A DNA stretch of 64,000 bases from Escherichia coli. GTDB taxonomy: Bacteria; Pseudomonadota; Gammaproteobacteria; Enterobacterales; Enterobacteriaceae. The notes beneath the pieces are model-generated. The model saw only the letters and a program-made list of their open reading frames with translations, made no database searches and was not told where the DNA came from. Position 1 is the first letter of the stretch; every line of letters starts with the position of its first letter. The position numbers and the translations under genes are program-made. Shown here piece after piece: positions 50,756-50,883 of the stretch. Where the stretch lies: assembly GCF_024223415.1 (NCBI RefSeq), contig NZ_CP100500.1; one strand, given 5' to 3'.

Positions 50756-50779
50756 AAACCCGCTCATCAGCGGGTTTTC
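50756..50779 (-). terminator. Candidate tR'-like terminator downstream of the late promoter
   Basis: AAAACCCGCT-gatga-GCGGGTTTT stem followed by GTGCTTT on the minus strand. Confidence 0.35.
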
Positions 50780-50823
50780 TACTTTTTCTTAACGTCGGGT
50801 ATACAAAGCCCATCGTTGAAAAA

Positions 50824-50852
50824 ATTTTATCCATATTTTTTGAAAAATGCAA
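50824..50852 (-). promoter_or_regulatory. Candidate late promoter PR' (-35 TTGCAT, 17-bp spacer, -10 TAAAAT) just downstream of Q
   Basis: Minus strand reads TTGCATttttcaaaaaatatggaTAAAAT. Confidence 0.4.
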
Positions 50853-50883
50853 ACATCATGTCGCCATCTTCAGCAAAAATCAT

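Follow-up and report, generated by a model that had tools for sequence, protein, structure and literature searches.

A probable lambda/phi80-type late-gene regulatory cassette downstream of quuQ in the Qin prophage of Escherichia coli K-12

Directly downstream of the phage gene quuQ, a 64-kb stretch of Escherichia coli DNA (contig NZ_CP100500.1; here called the window) very probably carries a late-gene regulatory cassette of the lambda/phi80 type, made up of a late promoter (PR'), a spacer that is the candidate binding site of the Q protein, a sigma70-dependent pause element (SDPE) and a terminator (tR'). The window covers the cryptic, defective prophage Qin of E. coli K-12: the 601 bases around the feature are 100% identical to E. 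coli K-12 MG1655, and the gene order matches that of Qin (rzpQ, rrrQ, ydfR, essQ, ynfU, cspB, cspF, ynfS, ydfT (quuQ), ydfU, rem, hokD, relE, relB). Adding 1,591,605 to a window coordinate gives the coordinate in NC_000913.3. The minus strand carries both quuQ and the lysis genes, and the feature therefore has to be read on it. The evidence for the cassette consists of its sequence elements, their homology to known late promoters, their conservation, and an RNA 3′ end mapped in vivo on the minus strand at the terminator; the site of initiation, the pausing, the binding of Q and its effect on read-through we infer. The cassette is the expected lambdoid late switch, a previously unannotated copy and no new kind of system. 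No feature is annotated between ynfS and quuQ in the RefSeq records examined (including NC_000913.3), and the searchable literature on quuQ, ydfT and the cspF-ydfT intergenic region contains no relevant mention of a cassette.

From quuQ to the terminator

A cassette of this kind has been defined as a Q gene, PR', an SDPE, a terminator and late genes (Yin et al., 2022). A Q-lambda-family gene lies directly upstream of the feature on the same strand: quuQ (ydfT; b1559 in NC_000913.3; window 50884..51636, minus), whose product, QuuQ, comprises 250 aa when counted from the annotated start and belongs to the Q-lambda family, with putative antiterminator activity. In Pfam it matches Antiterm (PF03589, defined as the Q-lambda family; Yin et al., 2022) at 4.2e-54 and DnaJ_CXXCXGXG (PF00684) at 1.5e-8; by BLASTP it is 33% identical to lambda Q (E = 2e-40), and it matches the solved lambda Q chains (PDB 7UBM/7UBN) at 4.6e-36. 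It retains the conserved N-terminal segment (G39 equivalent) and the C-terminal ...L..VTR. Its arm (residues ~113-190) differs from that of lambda Q in having two extra CXXCXGXG repeats, that is, four compared with two in lambda and P22 Q. The extra repeats lie on a 48-residue insertion in the zinc-ribbon arm, the part that in lambda Q contacts positions 11-13 of the Q-binding element (QBE) and sigma region 4 (Yin et al., 2022). The long-arm form is common to QuuQ and the Q proteins of phi80, SI5, YeP2, Fraca and Erwinia phage 59, and the short form is that of lambda and P22.

The original prediction placed a sigma-70-like promoter, TTGCAT-17-TAAAAT, within about 60 bp of the Q stop, and such a promoter does occur 31-60 nt past the stop codon (TAA, 50886..50884, minus), on the minus strand. 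The -35 hexamer TTGCAT (50847..50852, minus; 31 nt after the stop) is identical to the annotated -35 of phi80 pR'. It is followed by a 17-nt spacer, TTTTCAAAAAATATGGA (50830..50846, minus), which is the candidate Q-binding element, and by the -10 hexamer TAAAAT (50824..50829, minus), which ends 60 nt after the stop and runs into TTTTTC; the -10 reads TAAGAT or TAGGAT elsewhere in the cassette family and TAAATT in lambda. At the level of sequence, then, the position directly downstream of Q holds a sigma70 promoter homologous to lambda/phi80 PR'.

Exactly 6 nt after the -10 stands AACGATGGG (50817..50809, minus), identical to positions +1..+9 of lambda PR' and at the same spacing. It comprises the predicted start site, an A at 50817, and the predicted SDPE (50809..50817, minus), with a -10-like hexamer, AACGAT, at +1..+6 and a GC-rich triplet, GGG, at +7..+9 of the initial transcribed region. 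The A of AACGAT is what we take to be the first nucleotide of lambda 6S RNA. The 9-mer is unique within the window, and the probability of a match at a fixed position is 3.7e-6. The pause and Q sites had earlier been proposed from the architecture alone; the pause element can in fact be read explicitly in the sequence. In lambda, a -10-like pause-inducing sequence with a discriminator-like GGG at +7-9 gives pausing mainly at +16 (Bird et al., 2016), and the pause region predicted by analogy in Qin is TGTAT at +13..+17 (50801..50805, minus).

The position of the 9-mer matters because hexamers and hairpin by themselves are not beyond chance expectation. A consensus scan found 10 promoter-like sites in 4 kb, compared with 7.9 +/- 2.8 in shuffles, and 7 terminator-like sites in 4 kb, compared with 3.5 +/- 1.7; in separate counts, 128 kb (both strands) held 50 promoter-like sites as good as this one, and the minus strand 11 terminator-like sites. 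What takes the feature beyond chance is that AACGATGGG sits at the exact spacing of lambda PR'.

An intrinsic terminator lies between the pause element and the late genes. The GC-rich hairpin with a U-rich tail that had been noted about 40 bp past the promoter is found on the minus strand, starting 45 nt after the -10: AAAACCCGCT-GATG-AGCGGGTTTT (50755..50778, minus; +40..+63), a tR'-like structure with a 10-bp stem and a GAUG loop, followed by GTGCTTTAAA (GTGCTTT directly past the stem). It folds at -23.9 kcal/mol (z = -7.5) on minus-strand RNA and at -15.1 kcal/mol on the plus strand. The consensus scan lists the hairpin as a terminator for the plus strand only; it is unlisted for the minus strand because the tail past the full 10-bp stem, GTGCTTTA, has fewer than five T in eight. 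The promoter, pause element and most of the terminator fall within the proposed interval, 50756-50883, and the feature runs some 5-10 nt beyond its lower end, the hairpin reaching 50755 and the RNA 3′ end 50751.

That 3′ end lies in the U-rich tract UUUUGUGCUUUAAA (50745..50758, minus). It was recorded by Term-seq as an “orphan” minus-strand end at NC_000913.3 1,642,356, corresponding to window 50751 and to ...GGGUUUUGUGC (Adams et al., 2021, Supplementary file 1). The file has one sheet per condition (LB at an optical density (OD) of 0.4, LB at OD 2.0, and M63) and lists the end three times, with counts of 103,591 and 55,368 in the two entries read (Adams et al., 2021). Since a minus-strand 3′ end falls in the U-tract, the hairpin ends minus-strand transcripts in vivo in uninduced K-12. 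The predicted terminated PR' transcript is therefore 67 nt long (50751..50817, minus), with its 5′ end set by homology to lambda and its 3′ end by Term-seq, and would be the counterpart of lambda 6S RNA. It folds as a 5′ stem-loop plus the terminator hairpin (-30.4 kcal/mol, z = -6.1).

Some further observations concern this RNA and its leader. The first 27 nt (50791..50817, minus), which include the pause-element sequence, can pair (AACG with CGUU, UGGG with CCCG). Pairing of nt 1-4 with nt 24-27 was considered as a conserved 5′ stem of the nascent RNA, and can be drawn in lambda, P22 and YeP2 with one possible compensatory change; it was judged unconvincing, with z only -0.3 to -2.7 and changes that are mostly one-sided. 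An Rfam search of the feature (E <= 1) gave no credible family for the 67-nt RNA, and an overlap with “throat-1” was rejected as chance level (E = 0.52).

Late genes follow on the same strand: essQ (holin family PF04971, P21-type), ydfR, rrrQ (lysozyme) and rzpQ (47425..48980, minus) are the presumed targets of Q-dependent read-through. The proposed architecture of PR', pause site and tR' is thus supported by the Q-family gene, the lambda/phi80-like promoter, the lambda-identical pause element, the terminator and the downstream lysis genes. If the cassette works as its relatives do, host sigma70 RNA polymerase would initiate at ~50817 (A of AACGAT) without phage factors, sigma region 2 would re-bind AACGAT-GGG on the non-template strand, and the complex would pause at ~+13 to +17. 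Without Q, polymerase would escape and terminate at the hairpin and U-tract (+67), leaving the 67-nt RNA that ends at 50751. QuuQ, once made, would bind the -35/-10 spacer and the paused complex and travel with polymerase. The Q-modified enzyme would pass tR', run antisense through ynfS/cspF and then through cspB and a second hairpin (49433..49452), and this termination-resistant polymerase would reach essQ-ydfR-rrrQ-rzpQ.

Conservation and known relatives

The post-Q segment of Qin was found by BLAST in 35 phage records, and a protein-guided scan gave 80 IMG/VR loci; copies of the cassette occur in SfV, mEp460, 2H10, Tritos, Stx2c phages and 78 IMG/VR contigs. In an alignment of 11 BLAST-selected phages, the -35, most of the spacer and AACGATGGGCTTT are invariant, and homology stops just past the hairpin. 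Column entropy was computed over 39 distinct 270-nt variants, drawn from phages and IMG/VR contigs. Because the search pattern contained the -35 and the 9-mer, their invariance in this set is by construction. The loci that lack the pattern number seven: two are truncated, four have AATGATGGG (AATGAT) and one has GACGATGGG (GACGAT) at the pause element, and in the seven the -35 TTGCAT is invariant. The key -10 positions of the pause element, A2 and T6, are kept in 78/78 loci that reach it.

Outside the search pattern, mean column entropy is lowest in the spacer (0.15), followed by the last 96 nt of the Q coding sequence (0.26) and the segment from the stop codon to the -35 (0.34); it rises to 0.95 in the linker (+28..+39), 1.35 in the tail after the hairpin (+64..+72) and 1.50 from +73 onward. 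In other words, spacer and pause element are nearly fixed, while the linker, the tail and the sequence past the terminator diverge. In lambda and phi80 the spacer is where Q binds; here 13 of its 17 columns are invariant, but the half aligned with the Q site annotated in phi80 differs from that site. All relatives have a hairpin in the same place but with varied sequence, and three pairs show changes on both sides (RNAalifold); examples are AACCCGC-CGCTGA-GCGGGTT (SfV), AACCTCGC-TTCG-GCGGGGTT (SKA5/Sal3) and AAACCGC..GCGGTTT (L085). At least seven unrelated sequences directly follow the terminator in different phages, which places a module boundary directly after the hairpin.

The nearest modules are those of SfV, mEp460, Ayreon, 2H10, Tritos and the Stx2c phages, in which Q is 89-100% identical and the non-coding part 80-100%. 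Their downstream cargo differs from that of Qin, and the Stx2c phages carry stx2c. The SfV and Ayreon records annotate the hairpin as a putative rho-independent terminator; promoter, pause element and Q site are unannotated in every record of these phages. The complete phage genome PhiR42_1 has a cassette that is base-for-base identical to that of K-12, and phages 2H10 and Tritos (complete genomes) have near-identical cassettes in the same order of Q, cassette, cspF/cspB and lysis genes; the cis elements of Qin are therefore probably intact.

Two sets of observations on the non-coding segment can be added. An inverted repeat follows the quuQ stop upstream of the -35 (TTGCT-GAAGAT-GGCGA; 50861..50875, minus), reading TCGCC...GGCGA in relatives, with TTGCCA-CGGA-TGGCAA at the same place in lambda and P22; the motif GATGGC(A/G)ACAT is common to this region. 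As a conserved structure the repeat was rejected, being broken in several variants. Mechanical open reading frames (ORFs) of 51 aa (50697..50852, minus) and 102 aa (50737..51045, plus) overlap the cassette, and some phage records, such as that of HannyBb, annotate small hypothetical proteins there. Given the regulatory elements, the two ORFs are probably not genes.

The late region of lambda shares with Qin a Q of the PF03589 family, the order and spacing of -35, 17-nt spacer, -10 and 6-nt discriminator, and an intrinsic terminator before the lysis genes. Lambda PR' reads TAAATT-TGACTC-AACGATGGG; in an ungapped comparison from the -35, Qin and lambda agree at 4/6 positions of the -35, 11/17 of the spacer (including AAAA..TGG(G/A)), 5/6 of the -10 and 9/9 of +1..+9. 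They differ in the -35 (TTGACT in lambda, TTGCAT in Qin), in the upstream half of the spacer (ATTGAAT in lambda, TTTCAAA in Qin) and in the length of the leader (194 nt in lambda, 67 nt in Qin). Similarity stops after ~+9, and no homology to lambda 6S RNA extends along the PR'-tR' transcript. Qin, unlike lambda, has the cold-shock genes cspF and cspB between tR' and the lysis genes.

The late promoter of phi80 is a relative with direct annotation: record JX871397 marks a pR' (-35 TTGCAT, -10 TAGATT), a binding site for gp17 (Q) and a terminator. Qin and phi80 share a long-arm Q, an identical -35, 11/17 spacer positions (with ...CTGGA/...ATGGA before the -10) and a short leader that ends in a hairpin terminator (at ~+50..+75 in phi80), and the pause element is AACGCTGGG in phi80 compared with AACGATGGG in Qin. 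On the other hand, phi80 Q is only ~36% identical to QuuQ, the discriminator has 7 nt compared with 6 nt in Qin, and the terminator has another sequence. Because the annotated phi80 Q site, TCGCGGA (spacer positions 2-8), aligns to TTTCAAA in Qin, Q specificity probably differs between the two.

The P22 gene 23 late promoter is also of the lambda type, with AACGATGG, a short leader and a hairpin at ~+27..+55; it differs in its short-arm, lambda-like Q and in a promoter nearly identical to that of lambda, not Qin. Short leaders ending in a hairpin terminator are found in P22, YeP2, Fraca, ST340-VIM1phi10.1 and Erwinia phage 59, while lambda and SI5 have the long 6S-type leader. A PR'-tR' unit of 55-75 nt is therefore the usual design of the family, and Qin is a typical member.

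Weighing the proposed late switch against other readings

Several points weigh against a working late switch in Qin. The prophage is defective, and the activity of QuuQ is predicted from its sequence. Beside the pause element, lambda reportedly carries a -35-like segment, TTGACT; Qin has no such TTGACT one base upstream of its pause element (TTTTTT-C stands there), and the relatives read TTTTCC/TTCTCC at that place. In lambda Q loading, sigma region 4 is repositioned to the segment beside the pause element (Yin et al., 2022). The exact pause site is uncertain as well: in SfV-type relatives T17-G18, together with G8, fits the elemental pause consensus G-10/Y-1/G+1, and K-12 has T17-A18, with A in place of G at +18. 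The K-12 U-tract, UUUUGUGC, is the shortest in the family, with four U before GUGC compared with five to seven in relatives. An additional minus-strand “orphan” 3′ end, at 1,642,188 (window 50583), was recorded in LB at OD 2.0 only (Adams et al., 2021). It lies 168 nt past tR' and antisense to ynfS, and may hint at leakage past tR' in stationary phase, that is, at incomplete termination. The end could derive from the PR' transcript, by read-through or processing, or belong to an independent antisense RNA. The remaining two points concern the two ends of the transcript. The accessible supplementary tables of RNET-seq, Cappable-seq and ROSE studies have no entry for a start site at 50817 (1,642,422, minus), and the 3′ end at 50751 could partly belong to read-through quuQ mRNA and not to a PR' transcript, as Term-seq cannot by itself separate the two.

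These last two points would also suit a different reading, in which the hairpin is a shared bidirectional terminator for the convergent quuQ mRNA (minus) and cspF-ynfS (plus), and the promoter hexamers are inactive or decayed and form no working PR' unit in K-12. The surroundings offer this reading some footing: A- and U-tracts flank the hairpin on both sides, the scan scores a plus-strand terminator, cspF and ynfS converge on the hairpin, and promoter-like hexamers of PR' quality are common in the region. Nevertheless, we regard it as very unlikely. Promoter, pause element and hairpin are conserved jointly in phages without cspF downstream (SfV, mEp460, SKA5 and Stx2c phages), and a relic does not explain nine nucleotides identical to the lambda pause element, at exactly its spacing and near-invariant in 78 loci. 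The Term-seq table lists no plus-strand 3′ end at the tR' hairpin (Adams et al., 2021). The identity of the K-12 cassette with that of a complete phage genome (PhiR42_1) likewise speaks against decay. Finally, the 3′ end at tR' has a higher count (103,591) than the minus-strand ends upstream of it (44,933 and 64,702), a weak hint of extra initiation between those ends and tR'.

Another possibility is that the PR'-tR' unit is mainly a small-RNA gene, making a constitutive 67-nt RNA that acts in trans, with antitermination secondary in a defective prophage. The model here is StxS of Stx1/Stx2a phages, which like the predicted Qin RNA comes from a late promoter and terminates at tR' in the lysogen. 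It arises by processing of a longer precursor, while the prediction for Qin is a primary transcript of 67 nt. StxS, a by-product RNA of PR'-tR', is an Hfq-binding regulator, and antiterminated phage promoters have been proposed as a source of small RNAs (Sy et al., 2020). In favour of such a role, Term-seq records an end at tR' on the minus strand under three growth conditions, and the RNA is predicted to form a stem at its 5′ end and to carry, before the terminator hairpin and its U-tail, a single-stranded A-rich linker, AAGAAAAAGUAGAAAA, that is ARN-like. Yet this linker, the most likely place for a seed or an Hfq site, ranks among the least conserved transcribed parts (with the entropy of 0.95 given above), the RNA has no match in Rfam, and the searchable literature does not mention it. 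A small-RNA role would in any case be compatible with the late switch, and as a replacement for it we give this reading a low probability, comparable to that of the shared terminator. The narrower claim that the 67-nt transcript (50817..50751, minus) is a constitutive, stable small RNA of K-12 acting in trans through its A-rich linker and U-tail, and not a mere by-product, is unlikely, if a little less so; a StxS-like role is possible but unsupported. Close variants of the RNA are carried by Stx2c-converting and other lambdoid phages.

A chance co-occurrence of promoter-like hexamers and a hairpin, of no function, would agree with counts of consensus matches in the region that lie within ~1-2 standard deviations of shuffles, but is effectively refuted by the comparative data (homology to lambda/phi80 PR', conservation across dozens of phages, hairpin covariation), together with the in vivo 3′ end, and its probability is negligible.

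The downstream region and Stx2c phages

The lysis genes of Qin lie ~1.8 kb downstream of PR', beyond the antisense ynfS/cspF, cspB and the second hairpin. This second GC-rich hairpin, AAACCCGCTCAGGCGGGTTT (49433..49452, both strands), stands between cspB and ynfU. A plus-strand Term-seq 3′ end at 1,641,060 (window 49455) coincides with it, so that it terminates ynfU; on the minus strand it lies 3′ of cspB, and it would be a second terminator for Q-modified polymerase to pass before essQ. An isrK-like Rfam match at 49430..49508 was weak (18 bits, with a cut-off of 50) and was rejected as probable noise. The 5′ untranslated region of cspB (49718..50110, minus) matches the Rfam cspA thermoregulator RF01766 (158.8 bits, E = 8e-43). 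This cold-shock gene, an insertion between tR' and the lysis genes, thus comes with an RNA thermosensor and presumably a promoter of its own. In five complete E. coli genomes an IS1A element is inserted in ynfS, ~150 nt past tR' and outside the cassette (for example NZ_CP092452.1, L102 ~400..1200, equivalent to window ~50600). Lying between tR' and the late genes, such an insertion would uncouple the cassette from the lysis genes.

Among the relatives, 15 Stx2c-converting phage records match the module, with this cassette type ~2.7 kb upstream of stx2A/stx2B. In Stx2c phage LC727876.1 (L006/L094), Q is 94% identical and is followed by the same module of promoter, pause element and terminator (L006 ~2515..2650); after the cassette come a lipoprotein-like ORF, a DNA methylase, tRNA-Met(CAT), tRNA-Arg(TCT) and stx2A/stx2B (L094 3668..4627 and 4639..4908). 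In Stx2c phages the cassette type presumably drives late expression of stx2c. Because the cassette lies upstream of stx2c, its basal read-through and its Q specificity bear on toxin expression.

For K-12, the cassette fills an annotation gap in the best-studied bacterial genome and explains a previously unassigned “orphan” Term-seq 3′ end (1,642,356). The known principle of Q antitermination is unchanged. For the wider family, Qin offers a natural variant of the lambda late switch, one that combines a lambda-identical pause element with a doubled zinc-finger arm and does without the adjacent sigma-region-4 site, and this variant could be useful for working out the interplay of the Q arm, the Q-binding element and sigma region 4.

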